DNA of 64,000 nucleotides from an uncultured Gemmatimonadaceae bacterium. GTDB taxonomy: Bacteria; Gemmatimonadota; Gemmatimonadetes; Gemmatimonadales; Gemmatimonadaceae. This document shows, piece after piece, positions 30,074-57,542 of the stretch (position 1 is its first letter; each line of letters begins with the position of its first letter). A model generated the notes under the pieces. The model was given only the letters and a program-made list of their open reading frames with translations. It made no database searches and had not been told where the DNA came from. Both the position numbers and the translations under genes were made by a program. The stretch lies in NCBI GenBank assembly GCA_963761305.1, contig CAVXGK010000001.1:544001-608000 (forward strand). The letters run 5' to 3'.

Positions 30074-30147
30074 ATCAGGCGATCTCGGCGGAGGGCGAGC
30101 GTGACGCCGATCACCCGCATTCCAGACGCGCCGATTAGGTTTGGACG

Positions 30148-30232
30148 CTGACCGGGGTGCCTGCCCACCAAGGGCGCAGGCTGAGAGAGACCCGTAGAAC
30201 CTGATCCGGTTCGTACCGGCGTAGGGAGTCAC
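30148..30232 (+). ncRNA. TPP (THI-box) riboswitch
   Basis: GGGGTGCC, GCTGAGA, ACCC, GAACCTGATC, GCGTAGGGA conserved blocks in correct order. Confidence 0.95.
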
Positions 30233-30234
30233 TG

Positions 30235-32328
30235 ATGATCATGCATGCTCGCGCGACGCATCGGCGTCGCCTCGGGGCGGCCGCACTGGCGCTCACCGTT
30301 CTGTTCGTCCCCAGCCTGCTCGTGTCACAGGCGACGTCTCAGTCCGACACGACGCGTCGCGATTCGACGCGCGTCCGACATCTCGAGCGCATCATGATCT
30401 CCGCGCTGCGAGGCACCGGCGCCGCGCTGATCTCGCAGAAGACGCTCACCGCCAGCGATCTCGCGCCGCGCTACTTCGGGCAGGACGTGCCGCTCTTGCT
30501 CCAGGGCGCGGCGCCGTCGCTCACGTCGTACGCCGAGACGGGGAACTACTGGGGCTACAGTTACATCAGGCTGCGGGGCATCGATCAGTCGCGCATCAAC
30601 CTCTCGATCGACGGCATTCCGCTGAATGATCCCGAGGATCAAGTCCTCTACTTCGCCGACTTTCCGGATTTGGCGAACAGCCTCGGGTCCGTGCAGGTGC
30701 AGCGAGGCGTGGGGACGAGCAGCAACGGCACGGCGGCGTACGCGGGGTCGATCAACATGGAGACGCTTCCGCTCTCCGGCGGCCAACGCTCGACCGATTT
30801 TCAGCTGGAAGGCGGATCGTTCGGCTCGCGGCGTGGGAGCTTCGACTATCGCAGCGGACTCACGTCCGACCGGCTCGCGATCGACGTCCGTCTCTCCGAT
30901 CTCCACACGGACGGGTATCGCTATCACTCGGGCGTCGACGGGAAATCCGCTTTCCTGAGCGCCGGCTACTTCGGCGATCGCAACATCCTGAAATTCACGG
31001 CGACGACCGGCACGATGAAGGACACGATGGCGTACCTCGCCGTGCCCGTCACCGAGCTCGATACCAACCGCCGCATCAATCCGTTGACGCCGCAGGAGCG
31101 CGACGGATTCACCGAGCGAATCGCCGCGATGTCGTACACGAGGCTCATCAACGGTTCCTCATCATGGTCGACGACCGCGTACCGGATTTCCGCGGACGGC
31201 GACTACGACGTGCAGCTCGACCCGCTCACGCAGTTCAACCTCGACTTCGTCTGGTACGGCGTGACGAGCGATTGGAGCGTGCGGCGCAACGGCCTGAGCC
31301 TGGACGTCGGCGCGAACGCGAACACGTACGCGCGCGATCATTTCGCGTTCCAGCATCCGGACCTCACGAACCCGATCTACTTCAACACCGGCCACAAGGG
31401 CGACGTGAGCGGCTTCACCAAGCTCGCGTACACGGCCGGAGCGACGACGTTCTTCGGCGATCTTCAGGCGCGGCACGCCGAGTTTCGCTATCTGCCGGAT
31501 GCGCACGCCGACATCGCGCCCGAATCGATCGCGTGGACGTTCGTGAATCCCAAGATCGGCGTCACGCGCGTCGTCAACCGCGCGACGTCGCTCTACGTGT
31601 CGTACGGCGCCAACACGCGTGAACCGGCGCGCAACGACATGCTCGGCGGATTCGACAACCTCGACACGTCGAACGTGGCGTTCGTCGGCGATCTCCATCG
31701 AGTGAAGCCGGAGACGGTGCATGACCTCGAGCTGGGCACGACGTACCGCACACGCAACGTCGAAGCCCAAGCCGACCTCTACTCGATGACGTTCCGCAAC
31801 GAGATCGCGCCGATCGGGCAGCTCAGCTACCTCGGGAATCCGCTGCGCGAGAACGTCGCGTCGAGCTACCGGCGCGGCATCGAGGGCGACATCACGTATC
31901 GCGGCATTCCTCGCTGGCTGCTGACGGCGAACGCCACCGCGAGCATGAACCAGATCCGCGACTACACCGATTCGACGGGCGACGTCCCCGTGACGTACCA
32001 CGACGTCCAGCCGCTGCTCACGCCGCGCTTCATGACCTACGGTCGCGCCGCGTTCGCGGCGACGCCGAACACGTGGCTCGCGCTGGAGACGCGCTACACC
32101 AGCAAGTCGTTCCTCGACAACACCGACGATCCGCGCTACGTGCTGCCCGCGTCGCTCGACGTCGATGTCAGCGCGTCGTGGCACGTGAAGGGCTACGAGA
32201 TCGTCGGCCGGATCAACAACCTGCTCGACAGGAACAACTACGGCAGCGGCTACGCAGGCGACGGCGTTCCGGATTACTACGTCGTTCCGCCGCGCAACTT
32301 CTTCGTCACGCTCAAGCTCGGGTTCTAG
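30235..32328 (+). CDS. TonB-dependent receptor, probably for thiamine or a precursor
   Basis: Plug motifs GYSYIRLRG, DGIPLNDPE, VQVQRGVGTSSNG..A..GSIN; C-terminal F; directly under a TPP riboswitch. Confidence 0.88.
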   Translation: MIMHARATHRRRLGAAALALTVLFVPSLLVSQATSQSDTTRRDSTRVRHLERIMISALRGTGAALISQKTLTASDLAPRYFGQDVPLLLQGAAPSLTSYAETGNYWGYSYIRLRGIDQSRINLSIDGIPLNDPEDQVLYFADFPDLANSLGSVQVQRGVGTSSNGTAAYAGSINMETLPLSGGQRSTDFQLEGGSFGSRRGSFDYRSGLTSDRLAIDVRLSDLHTDGYRYHSGVDGKSAFLSAGYFGDRNILKFTATTGTMKDTMAYLAVPVTELDTNRRINPLTPQERDGFTERIAAMSYTRLINGSSSWSTTAYRISADGDYDVQLDPLTQFNLDFVWYGVTSDWSVRRNGLSLDVGANANTYARDHFAFQHPDLTNPIYFNTGHKGDVSGFTKLAYTAGATTFFGDLQARHAEFRYLPDAHADIAPESIAWTFVNPKIGVTRVVNRATSLYVSYGANTREPARNDMLGGFDNLDTSNVAFVGDLHRVKPETVHDLELGTTYRTRNVEAQADLYSMTFRNEIAPIGQLSYLGNPLRENVASSYRRGIEGDITYRGIPRWLLTANATASMNQIRDYTDSTGDVPVTYHDVQPLLTPRFMTYGRAAFAATPNTWLALETRYTSKSFLDNTDDPRYVLPASLDVDVSASWHVKGYEIVGRINNLLDRNNYGSGYAGDGVPDYYVVPPRNFFVTLKLGF

Positions 32329-52822: not shown

Positions 52823-53605
52823 CTATGCGGCGGCCGCGCCGGGCTTCGGCGACTGCAGCGCGAACGATCCGCCTTGCGGGTCGCGGGCCATCGCGATCCA
52901 ATCGCCGTTCGGTACTTCCATCGGACCGTTCACGATCGCGCCGCCGAGTCGGCGCACCGCATCGGCGGCCGGAGTCACGTCGGTGACGCCGATGTACGAG
53001 AGCCACCGCGGCGCGGTGGCGTCGCCCGGGCGATTGAACATGCCGCCGTACGCCTGTCCATGCTGGCCGAACATGCAGTACGGGCCCATCGTCCCCATGT
53101 CGACCTCGCTCGTCTGTTCCCAACCGAACAGCGATTGATAGAACGCGAATGCGGCCTTGTAGTCGGTCGTCGCCAATTCGTGCCACGAGAACTCGCCGCG
53201 CCGGGGCGCGGCGCCCGGCGCGCCGCTCGGCCGATCGGGCTCGTAGATCCCCATCGTCGCGCCCTGCAGATCGGCGATGAGCGCCCAGCACCCGACGCCG
53301 GGCACTTCGGCGGGGCCGGCCAGCACCTTGCCGCCGAGTGTCGCCGTCTGCCGTGCCGAGGCGTCCACGTCGTAGACGTAGACGTACGGAGTCCAGTGCG
53401 GCTCGCCGCGGCGGTCGGCGGCGGCGGGATCGATCGCGACGATGCCCGCCATCGGCGCACCCGAAGCCTCGATCATCCGATACGAATCAGATAACTGTGA
53501 TGATCGTACGGACCACGGCGCCACCTGCGTGTAGAACGATTCGGCGGCGGCGGGATCGCTCGTCGCCAGCTCGTGCCAGACGAACCAGCCTTGGGCGTTC
53601 GACAT
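52823..53605 (-). CDS. Two-domain VOC/glyoxalase family protein
   Basis: Duplicated WHELAT motif, W..Y..V.DV, DPQG. Confidence 0.88.
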   Translation of the reverse strand: MSNAQGWFVWHELATSDPAAAESFYTQVAPWSVRSSQLSDSYRMIEASGAPMAGIVAIDPAAADRRGEPHWTPYVYVYDVDASARQTATLGGKVLAGPAEVPGVGCWALIADLQGATMGIYEPDRPSGAPGAAPRRGEFSWHELATTDYKAAFAFYQSLFGWEQTSEVDMGTMGPYCMFGQHGQAYGGMFNRPGDATAPRWLSYIGVTDVTPAADAVRRLGGAIVNGPMEVPNGDWIAMARDPQGGSFALQSPKPGAAAA

Positions 53606-53635: not shown

Positions 53636-54469
53636 CTAAGCGTCGAACCAGGCGCGGGCCGCGGCAAACTTGGTGTGCAGCTCGCCGGCGTCGGCGCGCG
53701 ACAGAACGCGCCTGAAGCTTGCCACCTCCTGTTCCGCAGCCGCAAGCGCGGCGTCGATCGCGGCCGCGTTCTCGGCGGCGATCGCCGACCACATCTCAGG
53801 CGAGCTGCCGGCGAGGCGCGTGATGTCGCGTCCACCCGGGCCGAGGGCGTCGCGGCCGACGCCCGCGCGACCGAGCGCGAGCGCCAGCGCCGCCGACAAG
53901 ACGTGCGGCAGATGGCTCGTCCAGGCGAGCGTATCGTCGTGCGCGGCCGCGTCGATCGACACGGGATGCGCGTCGAGGCTGCGCCAGAACTGGTCGGCGC
54001 GGGCGACGAGCTCGGCCGACGCGCCGAACGGCGCGCACAGATATACACGAGCGCCGGCGAAGAGTCCGCGCCGCGACGCCGCCCAACCAGATCGATGATC
54101 GCCGGCCATCGGATGCGATCCGACGAACCGCTGCGCGAGCCCGAGCGACTCGGCCTCGGCGACGATTCGACCCTTCGTGCTGCCGACGTCGGTGATCATC
54201 GCGGTGCCGTGATTCGCGGCGGCGAGCGTGCGCAAGACGTCGATCGCGGTGTCCACCGGCGTCGCGATGACGACGACGTCGGAACGAAGCGCGGCCAGCG
54301 ACGCGTCCAGCTTGCACGACACGACGCCGCTGTTCACCGCGTCGTCGAGCGCCGCGTCGTCCGCATCATAGGCCTCGATCTCCACGCCGCGCGCCGCGAG
54401 GTCTTTCGCGATCGAGCCACCGATCAGTCCGAGTCCGACGATCGCCGCGCGTTTGATCGAACCGCTCAC
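53636..54469 (-). CDS. tyrA: Prephenate/arogenate dehydrogenase
   Basis: GLGLIGGS, TDVGSTK, FVGSHPMAG, HD..A.TSHLPH, RLAGSSPEMW. Confidence 0.92.
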   Translation of the reverse strand: MSGSIKRAAIVGLGLIGGSIAKDLAARGVEIEAYDADDAALDDAVNSGVVSCKLDASLAALRSDVVVIATPVDTAIDVLRTLAAANHGTAMITDVGSTKGRIVAEAESLGLAQRFVGSHPMAGDHRSGWAASRRGLFAGARVYLCAPFGASAELVARADQFWRSLDAHPVSIDAAAHDDTLAWTSHLPHVLSAALALALGRAGVGRDALGPGGRDITRLAGSSPEMWSAIAAENAAAIDAALAAAEQEVASFRRVLSRADAGELHTKFAAARAWFDA

Positions 54470-54798
54470 GTGTGCTCCGGTTTCGACGACGCGCGCGCGC
54501 GGGCCTCGCTTTCCTCTTGCGCGCGCCGCGACATGCCGACGATCTGCCAGAACACCTCTCGCACCGGCTCGGTGGGCAGCCCCGCTTCGCGGGCGACGGT
54601 GGTCACGCGGCGGATCACCGCGGCCTCGCGCGTCGGATCGAGGATCGGCAGCTCGGCGATGCGCTTCAGTTCGGCGATGCGATGGCCCAGCCTCAGACGT
54701 CGCGCGAGCAGCTCGACCAGATCATTGTCGATCGACTCGATCTCCTGGCGGGCTTGCGACAATTTCTGGAGCGCCAGCGCCTTGGAGGGTTCGCTCAT
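54466..54798 (-). CDS. Chorismate mutase (AroQ type)
   Basis: [15 protein letters not shown]....PILDPTRE; 4-nt overlaps with both neighbours. Confidence 0.9.
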
Positions 54799-55850
54799 GC
54801 GACGGCCCGTCCTGGTATCGTGGTCTCGAGGCGCCGGCCCGCCGCCGACGCGAACGCGGCGAGCGATCGCATCATCTGGGCGAACGCCGGCGGCGCGAGC
54901 GACTGATCGCCGTCGGACAGCGCGTGTTCTGGATCCGGGTGCACCTCGACGATCAGTCCGTCGGCGCCGGCGGCGATCGCCGCGAAGGCGAGCGGTGCAA
55001 CGAGCGCCGCGTCGCCGCCCGCGTGGCTCGGATCGACGATCACCGGCAGGTGCGACTCGCGCTTCAGCACCGGGATGGCGGCGATGTCGAGGGTGTTGCG
55101 TGTCGCCGTCTCGTACGTGCGAATGCCGCGCTCGCACAGCACGACGTCGTGGTTGCCGTTGGCCATGATGTACTCGGCGGCCATCAAGAGTTCTTTGATC
55201 GTCGCCGAGAGGCCGCGCTTGAGCAGCACCGGCCGCCGCACGCGTCCGAGCTCGGCGAGGAGCGCGAAGTTCTGCATGTTGCGCGCGCCGACCTGCAGCA
55301 TGTCGGCGTGTTCGGCGACGAGATCCACCTGGCGCGTGTCCATCACTTCCGTCACCACGGGCAATCCGGTCTCGGCGCGCACTTCGGCGAGCAGCCGCAG
55401 CGCCTCGACACCGAGTCCCTGAAAGGCGTAGGGCGACGTGCGCGGCTTGTAGGCGCCGCCGCGGAGCATCGTCGCGCCGGCTCTCGACACCGTGTGCGCC
55501 GTGGCGACGAGCATCTCGCGGCTCTCGACCGAACACGGCCCGGCGATGACGGTGAGCGCGTTGCCGCCGAAGCTGGCGTGCGCCTCGCGGCCGCCGACGT
55601 GCACGACGGTGCGCTCGACCGCGAATTCGCGCGACGCGAGCTTGTACGGCTTGAGCACCGGCGTGACCGATTCGACGCCGGGGAGCGAACGCAGCGGCAG
55701 CTCGGCCAGGAGCGACTCGTCGCCGATGCATCCGATGATCGTGCGCTGCTCGCCGCGGGAGAGATGCGTGCGCATCCCGGCGGCTTCGATGCGCTCGCGG
55801 ATATGGTCGATCTCGGCGTCGGTGACGTTGGCTTTCGTGACGATGATCAT
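54795..55850 (-). CDS. aroF: DAHP synthase type I-beta with N-terminal regulatory domain
   Basis: [49 protein letters not shown]. Confidence 0.95.
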
Positions 55851-55881
55851 TGGCGTTTCACGTGGAGCGGTTGAGGTCCGG

Positions 55882-55919
55882 AAAAACAAAAAAGCGACCC
55901 GTGTGGTTCACGGGTCGCT
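55882..55919 (-). terminator. Attenuator terminator (3:4 stem) upstream of aroF
   Basis: AGCGACCCGTG-aacca-CACGGGTCGCT followed by TTTTTGTTTTT on the minus strand. Confidence 0.92.
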
Positions 55920-55947
55920 GGGGTAGGTGCGCGGCGTTGTTGATCGG

Positions 55948-56025
55948 CTAGCGCGTACGGCTCCGCCCACGGCCCGTTCGGGTCGCGTAATAATAGGAGT
56001 AAACGTAGGCCGCAGCGCGGATCAT
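55948..56025 (-). CDS. Tyr-rich attenuator leader peptide MIRAAAYVYSYYYATRTGRGRSRTR
   Basis: 25-aa ORF with 5 Tyr codons in 7 positions, between promoter and terminator; alternative ATG at 56031; not in the ORF track. Confidence 0.9.
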   Translation of the reverse strand: MIRAAAYVYSYYYATRTGRGRSRTR

Positions 56026-56031
56026 GCGCAT

Positions 56032-56060
56032 ACGGTACGGACGGGAGCGCGGAGTGTCAA
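56032..56060 (-). promoter_or_regulatory. Sigma70 promoter of the aroF-CM-tyrA operon
   Basis: TTGACA (56060-56055)-N17-TACCGT (56037-56032); leader ATG 7 nt downstream. Confidence 0.82.
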
Positions 56061-56066
56061 GCCGGG

Positions 56067-57542
56067 TCAGCGCAGGCGCTCCTCGGCCAACTCGTGTTTC
56101 GCCGCGAAATCGTAGAGTGTCGCGCGACGCAGGTGGTAATAGGCATTCCAGTAGTTTCGCAGGGCTTCGACGTGCGCGATGAGCGAATTGTCTTTGTCGC
56201 TCTGGGCGTTGTACAAGTCGGTGTTGCTGATCTTGCCCGTCGTGTAGCGGTTTCGGGCGACCTCGAACTGTTTGACCGACACCGTGTCGGCCTTGGCCGC
56301 CAGGGTCACGTTGCGTTGAGCCTGCTCCAACTGGAGCACGGAGAACCGCGCGTCCTCGGCGATCTGATCGCGGCGCGTCTTGTTGTTGGTCACGGCCCGC
56401 CGGTCATCCGCCTTGGCGGCCTCGACGTCGGAGTGGCCGGCGCCCCACTGGACCATCGGCAGCGTGACGCCGAGCGTGAGCGATTGCCGCCCCATCGGAC
56501 TCTGGTACGCGGCACCGAAGCCGCCCGCGGTCTGGTTGAACCCGACCGTCGCCGCCACCTGCGCGTTGAATCCGTTGTTGAGCTTCGCCTGTGTGATCTC
56601 GTGGTGCACGTTCACTTCGTCCAGACTCGACTGCTCAATGAGGCTGGCGTTCTTCAGTGCTTCCTTCACGGCGACGTCCGGATCGGAATCAACGGTCGGA
56701 ATCGAATCGGGCGGAACGATGGCGAGCGATTGGTCGGCCGGGTAGTTGAGCATGCGGCGCAGCGCGGCCTCGGCCCGATCGCGCGCGAGCTTGGCGTCGT
56801 CGACCGACGCGCGAGCCCGCAACAACGCGAGCTCGCTCTTGAGCAAGTCGTTCTCGCCGATCTTGCCGACTTCGTAACGGCCCTTGTTGAGCGTGTAGAG
56901 CGTGTCGTTCACCGCGACGTTGGCCGTGGCGTTGGCGAGCGTCATCTGTTGCTCGTAGAGATTGAAGAACGCGTCGGCTGTGCCGCCGGCGACGTCTTCG
57001 CGCGCTTCGAGATACGATCGTTCGGCCACGCTCGCGCTGAGCGACTGGATTCGCTCCTGCCAGACGACTTCGCGCGGCTGGAACAGGTTCTGTTGCAGCG
57101 TGAGGACCACGGGCGACGTCTGCCAATACTTGTTGTACGTGGTGCCGAATTCATCGATGCGGCTGACGGCCGAGCCGACCGTGATCGTGCCGCCGGTGAG
57201 CGGGATCGCCTGGCTGAATCCCAACTGCATCGTCGACTGATTCTGCGACTGCCCGACGAACGCCGTCGAGCCGTCGGGCGCGGTGATCGGGTTGATGCCG
57301 TGATTCAGGTTCGCCGCGTTGCCGCTCAGAAAGAGCTGCGGCCGGAGCCGCGCGTTGAACGCGTCGTTGTGATAGCGGGCCGCGTCTCGCGTCGCGCGCG
57401 CGCCTTCTGCCAGATCGCCGCGCGTCTGCGCCATCGCGATGGCGTCGGCGAGCGTGAGCGACTTGCCGGAGGCGCGCGCGGAGTCCTGAGCAACCGCGGC
57501 CGGCGCGAGGGCCGCGAGCAAGAACAACGTCGAGAGTCGCAT
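56067..57542 (-). CDS. TolC-family outer membrane protein
   Basis: Signal peptide from MRLSTL; OEP repeats GRYEVGKI, NRYTTGKIS, LRRATLYDF. Confidence 0.88.
   Translation of the reverse strand: MRLSTLFLLAALAPAAVAQDSARASGKSLTLADAIAMAQTRGDLAEGARATRDAARYHNDAFNARLRPQLFLSGNAANLNHGINPITAPDGSTAFVGQSQNQSTMQLGFSQAIPLTGGTITVGSAVSRIDEFGTTYNKYWQTSPVVLTLQQNLFQPREVVWQERIQSLSASVAERSYLEAREDVAGGTADAFFNLYEQQMTLANATANVAVNDTLYTLNKGRYEVGKIGENDLLKSELALLRARASVDDAKLARDRAEAALRRMLNYPADQSLAIVPPDSIPTVDSDPDVAVKEALKNASLIEQSSLDEVNVHHEITQAKLNNGFNAQVAATVGFNQTAGGFGAAYQSPMGRQSLTLGVTLPMVQWGAGHSDVEAAKADDRRAVTNNKTRRDQIAEDARFSVLQLEQAQRNVTLAAKADTVSVKQFEVARNRYTTGKISNTDLYNAQSDKDNSLIAHVEALRNYWNAYYHLRRATLYDFAAKHELAEERLR

Follow-up and report, generated by a model that had tools for sequence, protein, structure and literature searches.

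What controls the tyrosine genes of this bacterium is the question raised by a short region on the minus strand of the window, the 64,000-nucleotide stretch of uncultured Gemmatimonadaceae DNA analysed here. The aroF-tyrA genes of E. coli are controlled by TyrR. For the window, an initial annotation proposed a switch read by a ribosome on a tyrosine-rich leader that precedes the following genes:

54795..55850, minus strand: aroF, DAHP synthase with an N-terminal ferredoxin-like domain, 351 aa (PRK08673 and TIGR01361, over cut-off)
54466..54798, minus strand: chorismate mutase (CM) type II, 110 aa (PF01817); its start overlaps the aroF stop (ATGA)
53636..54469, minus strand: tyrA, prephenate/arogenate dehydrogenase family, 277 aa (PF02153 and PF20463)

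The assignment of an aroF-chorismate mutase-tyrA operon agrees with the profile matches (PRK08673; PF01817; PDH_N and PDH_C), with aroF reaching 495 bits against NCBIfam PRK08673 and tyrA scoring below the NCBIfam equivalog cut-offs. The start of tyrA overlaps the CM stop (GTGA), and the nearest named tyrA relatives are Gemmatimonadaceae. A 260-aa open reading frame (ORF) with a weak KbpA-like match (52823-53605, minus strand) begins 30 nt downstream of tyrA in the same orientation and is possibly part of the same transcript. Elsewhere in the window, a TPP riboswitch lies at 30143-30244 on the plus strand (72.5 bits). The window's genome (G000) is 93% complete and gave no match to the TyrR HTH model (TIGR04381; control matches only in E. 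coli); neither the genome nor the window matched the T-box model (RF00230; control matches in 5 of 14 genomes). No Rfam family reached the gathering level at the leader, where only an unrelated sRNA was reported (E 0.85), and the covariance models of the Trp, Phe, His, Leu and Thr leader families gave no match there.

Direct reading of the minus strand from 56060 to 55882 recovered all the letters of the promoter, Tyr ORF and terminator region as first described, together with the gap of about 30 nt to aroF. The leader is made up as follows:

56055..56060, minus strand: -35 hexamer TTGACA of a predicted sigma-70-type promoter (TTGACA or TTGACG correctly spaced in 36 of 44 leaders)
56032..56037, minus strand: -10 hexamer TACCGT (TANNNT), 17-nt spacer from the -35 hexamer, 6 nt 5' of the leader ATG
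55948..56025, minus strand: leader ORF of 25 codons plus TAG (MIRAAAYVYSYYYATRTGRGRSRTR); ATG at 56025, TAG ending at 55948
55987..56007, minus strand: Tyr control codons 7, 9, 11, 12 and 13 (TAC, TAC, TAT, TAT and TAC)
56009..56018, minus strand: 5' strand of the outer 1:2 helix, predicted partner 55961-55951 (MFE of the ORF alone)
55980..55986, minus strand: inner part of segment 1, GCGACCC, adjoining the last Tyr codon; predicted partner is segment 2
55966..55977, minus strand: segment 2 (ACGGGCCG-UGGG), predicted antiterminator strand within the ORF and near copy of segment 4
55951..55961, minus strand: 3' strand of the outer 1:2 helix, predicted; in the antiterminator fold it partly re-pairs downstream
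55909..55922, minus strand: segment 3 (CCCAGCGACCCGUG), terminator 5' arm and predicted partner of segment 2
55882..55919, minus strand: intrinsic terminator 3:4, 11-bp stem at 55919-55893, U tract to 55882

The window's ORF has five Tyr in seven codons and no Phe, and at least four Tyr in seven codons occurs in just one of the 14,365 ATG ORFs of 14-45 aa in the 5.2-Mb genome, the window leader itself. Eight of the 11 terminator stem pairs are G-C, the loop is 5 nt, and the U tract ends 31 nt before the aroF ATG (55850), and the hairpin does not overlap the aroF start region; one terminator-like site in 1.1 kb against a shuffle mean of 0.9 is, alone, not above chance. The leader peptide matched nothing in Pfam or NCBIfam. 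Several features of a classical attenuator were found, namely clustered end-product codons, a 3:4 terminator, and control codons on which a stalled ribosome is predicted to leave segment 2 free. On sequence and folding models, we consider it very likely that the Tyr ORF and the terminator before aroF-CM-tyrA form a ribosome-mediated transcription attenuator that senses Tyr-tRNA.

A consensus promoter scan reported no promoter at the leader, because TACCGT matches just 3 of 6 positions, and the promoter call rests on conservation. In 40 of the 44 leaders, the ATG is preceded at a distance of 5-8 nt by a TANNNT box, and a Shine-Dalgarno (SD)-like word is found in one of the 44. Genome-wide, the gap between TANNNT and the first ATG of 1881 long ORFs peaks at 6 nt, with 65 cases compared with about 6 at other gaps and 1 for internal ATGs. 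For these three reasons, the leader ORF is probably translated leaderless from a transcript that begins at or next to ATG 56025. Another in-frame ATG, at 56031, was discarded as start codon because it abuts the -10 box and would lie upstream of a normal start site.

The Tyr-rich upstream ORF that the initial annotation expected before orthologous operons is widely present. A search of 41 genomes gave 22 orthologous aroF loci within the genus, including the window's own, and 21 of these have an intact leader with promoter, Tyr ORF (24-26 codons) and terminator; in the remaining one (L022) the Tyr run is frameshifted by a single base, and its aroF is broken too in that assembly. Among 37 tyrA loci from named genomes, several of which repeat genomes of that search, 28 have the leader, 4 end before its position, 2 have the operon but no leader (L060 and L061) and 3 have no operon, which leaves 28 of the 30 loci that have both the operon and upstream DNA. 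A draw of 151 genomes across the phylum yielded 92 with a tyrA match, and 60 of 94 places were examined; the leader was found in all eight loci with aroF and/or CM before tyrA, and no Tyr ORF with a terminator was found at the 52 tyrA homologues in other contexts. Copies thus reach other genera and a second family. They are kin, and the counts therefore overstate independence and are given without a p-value. A loose pattern search of six genomes gave as many control matches as real ones.

Leaving out duplicates and the frameshifted copy, 44 non-redundant intact leaders were compared. Tyr accounts for 197 of their 1114 codons (17.7%; 140 TAC and 57 TAT), compared with 2.5% in a rough proteome. 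Variation within the Tyr codons is confined to the third base and the frame is kept. Gene order around the leader varies: at L074 (G081) it lies directly before CM-tyrA with no aroF, and at L069/L131 (G135) about 3 kb, including an ORF that by eye resembles a tyrosyl-tRNA synthetase, is inserted between CM and tyrA.

Indirect evidence on which amino acid would be sensed came from a second gene. A covariance model built from 40 aligned leaders gave matches in 46 of 150 phylum genomes at E <=0.01, many of them weak, and the strong new matches precede phenylalanine hydroxylase (phhA) genes. Thirty phhA loci were examined, out of 49 genomes with a match, and the same Tyr leader precedes phhA in eight of them, seven found by script and one by the model (L180, L182, L185, L187, L188, L191, L216 and L221); the other 22 have no such leader within 560 nt. 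The phhA of L180 passes the NCBIfam PRK11913 cut-off, and genomes G070, G081 and G105 carry the leader at both aroF-type and phhA gene sets. In a phhA tree, 18 loci that have no Tyr leader group apart, at a fork that is weak (85/59) and with one row badly cut. Together, the eight phhA leaders contain 28 Tyr codons and no Phe codon. Phe is the substrate of phenylalanine hydroxylase, and Tyr is therefore the sole product that both gene sets share; we regard the codon content of the phhA leaders as the best indirect evidence for Tyr sensing. At L185, the leader follows the apparent 3' end of a tRNA gene in place of a promoter of its own. Overall, the interpretation given in the initial annotation is supported, and the probable leaderless start and the phhA leaders are features that it lacked.

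Leaders of the same kind with other codons were found across the phylum. Trp-rich leaderless leaders of the same layout precede an aroF paralogue heading trp genes, which were identified by eye from translations, at L023/L132 (G035) and L025/L133 (G028); a Phe leader precedes pheA at L174 (G016), leaders with both Phe and Tyr codons precede pheA-aroF-CM-tyrA at L043 and L050, and a His leader precedes hisG at L194. In these putative sister leaders, the codon content changes with the genes that come after. Of 12 pheA loci examined, from 26 matches, just one showed a Phe leader of its own ahead of pheA, and the trpE-like gene of the window's genome (C2:1762918) showed no Trp leader. Phe codons were also considered as a mark of pheA operons, which is true of L043 and L050 but fails for L012, L014, L049 and L068. 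The set comprising L174, L194, L200, L204, L190, L196 and L198 includes, besides the Phe/pheA leader and the His/hisG leaders, a Met/Cys ORF whose terminator lies ahead of a PAPS reductase gene, and mixed Trp/Tyr/Phe leaders upstream of aroF. The covariance model matched the His and Phe versions at E values of about 1e-5 to 1e-6, giving weak support to a common ancestry with the Tyr leader. It gave no match to the Asn or Met/Cys leaders of the window's genome described below, and common ancestry with these is not at all supported.

The alternative RNA structures were compared in an alignment of 40 of the 44 leaders, four longer ones being omitted. The terminator is paired in 93.6% of cells, with 5 of its 11 pairs changed on both sides and 36 both-side-changed cells, and none of 500 shuffles scored as high. 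The 2:3 core is paired in 86.6% of cells, compared with 26-40% in slid controls, and is near invariant, with both-side changes in 2 cells only. Of the covarying stems that the initial annotation proposed to look for, the terminator shows covariation and the antiterminator core little, and the 2:3 stem that the annotation drew is conserved in its complementarity but contains one C-A mismatch. Such a mismatch is found in the 2:3 core of 24 of the 40 rows, where segments 3 and 4 have changed together and segment 2 has not; in the divergent copies L131 and L174, a matching strand within the ORF differs along with the terminator. An antiterminator that excludes the terminator is suggested by conservation only, and the window's own antiterminator fold (-23 kcal/mol, z +0.44) is no better than those of shuffles. 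The segment 2 motif is read in three frames, in 34, 7 and 2 of the 44 copies respectively. As the core is conserved yet read in different frames, it is the RNA rather than the peptide that matters there.

The predicted 1:2 hairpin consists of an inner stem and an outer helix that pairs the opening codons with the last stretch of the ORF, and is 72% paired overall. The inner stem between segments 1 and 2 is paired in 73.9% of cells, with one column mostly mismatched, and the outer helix in 70.7%, with 5 of 9 pairs changed on both sides and a register that varies between copies. The 1:2 stem as first drawn contains one C-A mismatch and is only the inner part of a longer predicted hairpin. RNAalifold, run on a 21-row alignment, gave the terminator and a 5-6 bp 2:3 core only, with no full 1:2 helix. 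When the ORF was folded with no ribosome on it, the 1:2 fold freed segment 3 in only 18 of the 44 leaders, the window's included, which gives the role proposed for 1:2 partial support.

Ribosome positions were scanned on a transcript ending before segment 4, with a masked footprint extending 10 nt past the A site; this value is assumed, and 8 and 13 give the same medians. As the initial annotation had anticipated for a ribosome covering segment 1, 2:3 pairing is predicted to stay intact with the ribosome on any of the five Tyr codons of the window, and to be eroded from codon 14. Placing the A site on a middle Tyr codon gives, across the 44 copies, a median predicted probability of 0.87 that the ORF holds segment 3, compared with 0.49 when the ORFs are shuffled and 0.66 when they are recoded synonymously; all 44 leaders lie above their shuffled mean and 41 of them above their recoded mean, although it is fairly common for GC-rich shuffles to pair with segment 3 as well. 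In 4 of the 44 copies, a ribosome on the last Tyr codon would already cover segment 2, and the zero obtained at the stop codon in these scans is a consequence of masking that carries no evidential weight. In the full stalled transcript, the terminator (-37.6) is ahead of the antiterminator (-26.4) by about 11 kcal/mol. A working switch would therefore need to be kinetic, given that the terminator, once made, is the more stable fold.

A mechanism is proposed where transcription starts at or next to ATG 56025 and a ribosome loads without a Shine-Dalgarno sequence. When Tyr is plentiful, the ribosome would pass codon 13, cover segment 2 and reach the stop codon, allowing 3:4 to pair and RNA polymerase to terminate about 30 nt before aroF. 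At low levels of charged tRNA-Tyr, the ribosome is predicted to wait on codons 7-13 and cover segment 1; segment 2, left free, could then capture segment 3 before segment 4 is made, and the operon would be transcribed. In the case of no translation, folding of the ORF on itself (1:2) would make termination the default, although this prediction is weaker.

Other explanations of the same features have to be weighed. That the leader senses mainly Phe, or Phe and Tyr jointly, has a precedent in Corynebacterium glutamicum, where aroF is preceded by the leader peptide aroR (Phe-Tyr-Phe), whose response is reported to be to Phe but not to Tyr in the available text of the sources (Neshat et al. 2014, via PMC11802643; PMC4046766). 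The 44 aroF-type leaders contain 50 Phe codons, with at least one in 29 of the 44, and L012, L014, L049 and L068 have three or four with no pheA behind them. Set against this, the window leader has five Tyr and no Phe, 15 of the 44 leaders and all eight phhA leaders do without Phe, and a search of the window's 93%-complete genome for prephenate dehydratase found none. This enzyme is present in 18 of 24 same-genus genomes, and its absence possibly reflects Phe auxotrophy or an assembly gap; phenylalanine hydroxylase was not found in the window's genome either. Sensing mainly of Phe, or of Phe and Tyr jointly, appears very improbable for this leader, and mixed Phe/Tyr sensing is likely in some relatives. 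The leader might also be controlled independently of translation, by a protein (a TRAP-like RNA binder of the UAY repeats or a repressor that binds DNA) or by an undescribed tRNA- or ligand-binding RNA. The UAY repeats are indeed regular, and the whole ORF can be folded into a long hairpin. The ATG, frame and stop are nevertheless retained in all 44 copies, and indels in the ORF are multiples of three within the genus; with no TyrR HTH, T-box or Rfam family found at gathering level, we give such control very little credence.

The C-terminal half of the peptide (TGRGWSRTR-like) is well conserved within the genus, as might be expected if the nascent peptide were an arrest sequence sensing free tyrosine or another metabolite in the tunnel, the Tyr codons being incidental. 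TnaC is such a peptide, acting within the ribosome tunnel. In 9 of the 44 copies, the corresponding letters are translated in a different frame and hence give another peptide; with a ribosome stalled at the stop codon, segment 2 would be masked and termination favoured, and it is the Tyr run that tracks the downstream genes, all of which makes a TnaC-like reading highly unlikely. The least probable explanation is that the hairpin merely terminates an upstream efflux operon and that the ORF is a by-product. The tolC-like gene of that operon ends at 56067 on the same strand as the leader, a terminator scan found no other terminator in between, and a tolC homologue lies upstream in 17 of 21 same-genus leader loci and in 19 of all 44, all of them close relatives. 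In the 25 loci where the DNA examined has no tolC match, promoter, ORF and terminator still occur together, as they do before phhA, and the Tyr run would be left unexplained. The hairpin may nonetheless serve both the efflux operon and the attenuator.

Attenuation sensing Tyr-tRNA, the reading that we prefer, is in its mechanism textbook, and it is the Tyr version that is new as far as the literature searched goes. The enterobacterial attenuators trpL-trpEDCBA, pheL-pheA, hisL and leuL follow the Yanofsky model, according to the available text of PMC11802643, PMC2659441 and PMC9413887. The leader shares with them a short ORF with a run of end-product codons, predicted 2:3 and 3:4 alternatives with a putative 1:2 hairpin, and a terminator before the first gene, but differs in its Tyr codons, its probably leaderless start without SD, its occurrence in Gemmatimonadota and its lack of a match to any Rfam leader family. 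C. glutamicum aroR likewise places a run of aromatic codons in a leader peptide ahead of a DAHP synthase gene and includes a Tyr codon, whereas the window leader has five Tyr and no Phe, and its operon ends in tyrA. The element uORFC-13-1 of Acholeplasma was predicted by Brewer et al. (2021; PMC8632094) to combine an upstream ORF with an intrinsic terminator exclusively before aroF; the available text reads it as Phe-sensing with a ribosome-binding site (RBS), and reports it from Acholeplasma and environmental sequences only. By this description, it resembles the present leader in its upstream ORF and intrinsic terminator before aroF, and differs from it in its reading as Phe-sensing, its RBS and its range. 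In mycobacteria, polycysteine leaderless short ORFs form a Cys 'ribulon' at several loci (Canestrari et al., bioRxiv 10.1101/834739, available text). This is similar in its leaderless ORF, its run of one amino acid as sensor and its several loci, but there the stalled ribosome is described as freeing a ribosome-binding site and thus controlling translation, whereas the Tyr leader would sense Tyr and is predicted to block an intrinsic terminator, with no sequestering of a downstream RBS. The available text of PMC10783764 has nothing on leaderless mRNA in Gemmatimonadota.

In the open-access literature searched, neither a Tyr-only attenuator nor any phhA attenuator was described, and nor was attenuation in Gemmatimonadota, in line with the earlier remark that none was known in this lineage. 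Comparative surveys of attenuators have reportedly been made by the Gelfand and Lyubetsky groups, and a Tyr leader may be listed there.

Two further leaders lie in the window's genome but outside the window. At C1:276585-276811 (plus strand), one of two tRNA-Asn(GTT) genes is directly preceded by a leader that consists of a predicted promoter, a 21-codon leaderless ORF containing 5 Asn codons, and a terminator. Among loci L129 and L134-L163, this leader is complete in 22 of 25 from the genus, lacks an in-frame stop in L147 and is missing from L156 and L157, and it occurs in one of five loci from other families (L163). By its sequence, it looks like an attenuator that controls a tRNA gene, for which no description was found in the available text of the literature searched, and which would be more surprising than the Tyr attenuator itself. 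The genome also has a tRNA-SeC gene. At C2:2970802 (minus strand; L130), a leaderless 27-codon Met/Cys-rich ORF with a terminator precedes an ATP-grasp gene and an SfnG-like flavin monooxygenase gene (below cut-off), and is a candidate sulfur amino-acid attenuator.

We somewhat favour a joint reading of these leaders, in which much of the amino-acid control in Gemmatimonadota would rest on terminator switches that are leaderless, sensed by the ribosome and exchangeable in their sensor codons. The Tyr leader would then mark a Tyr-tRNA regulon over two unrelated routes to Tyr (aroF-CM-tyrA and phenylalanine hydroxylase), free of Phe codons where Phe is the substrate, with sister switches for Trp, Phe, His and Met/Cys, and with the Asn leader of the window's genome setting the output of a tRNA-Asn gene by how well Asn codons are read.

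Within the literature searched, Tyr is a gap among the amino acids with a described leader-peptide attenuator. If confirmed, the leader would fill that gap and show classical terminator attenuation on a leaderless ORF, and the 140-nt element could find use as a Tyr-tRNA biosensor. Its position before phhA suggests that phenylalanine hydroxylase in Gemmatimonadota serves Tyr supply and not catabolism, and confirmation would offer a first regulatory logic by which a soil phylum that is common but little studied controls its amino-acid synthesis.
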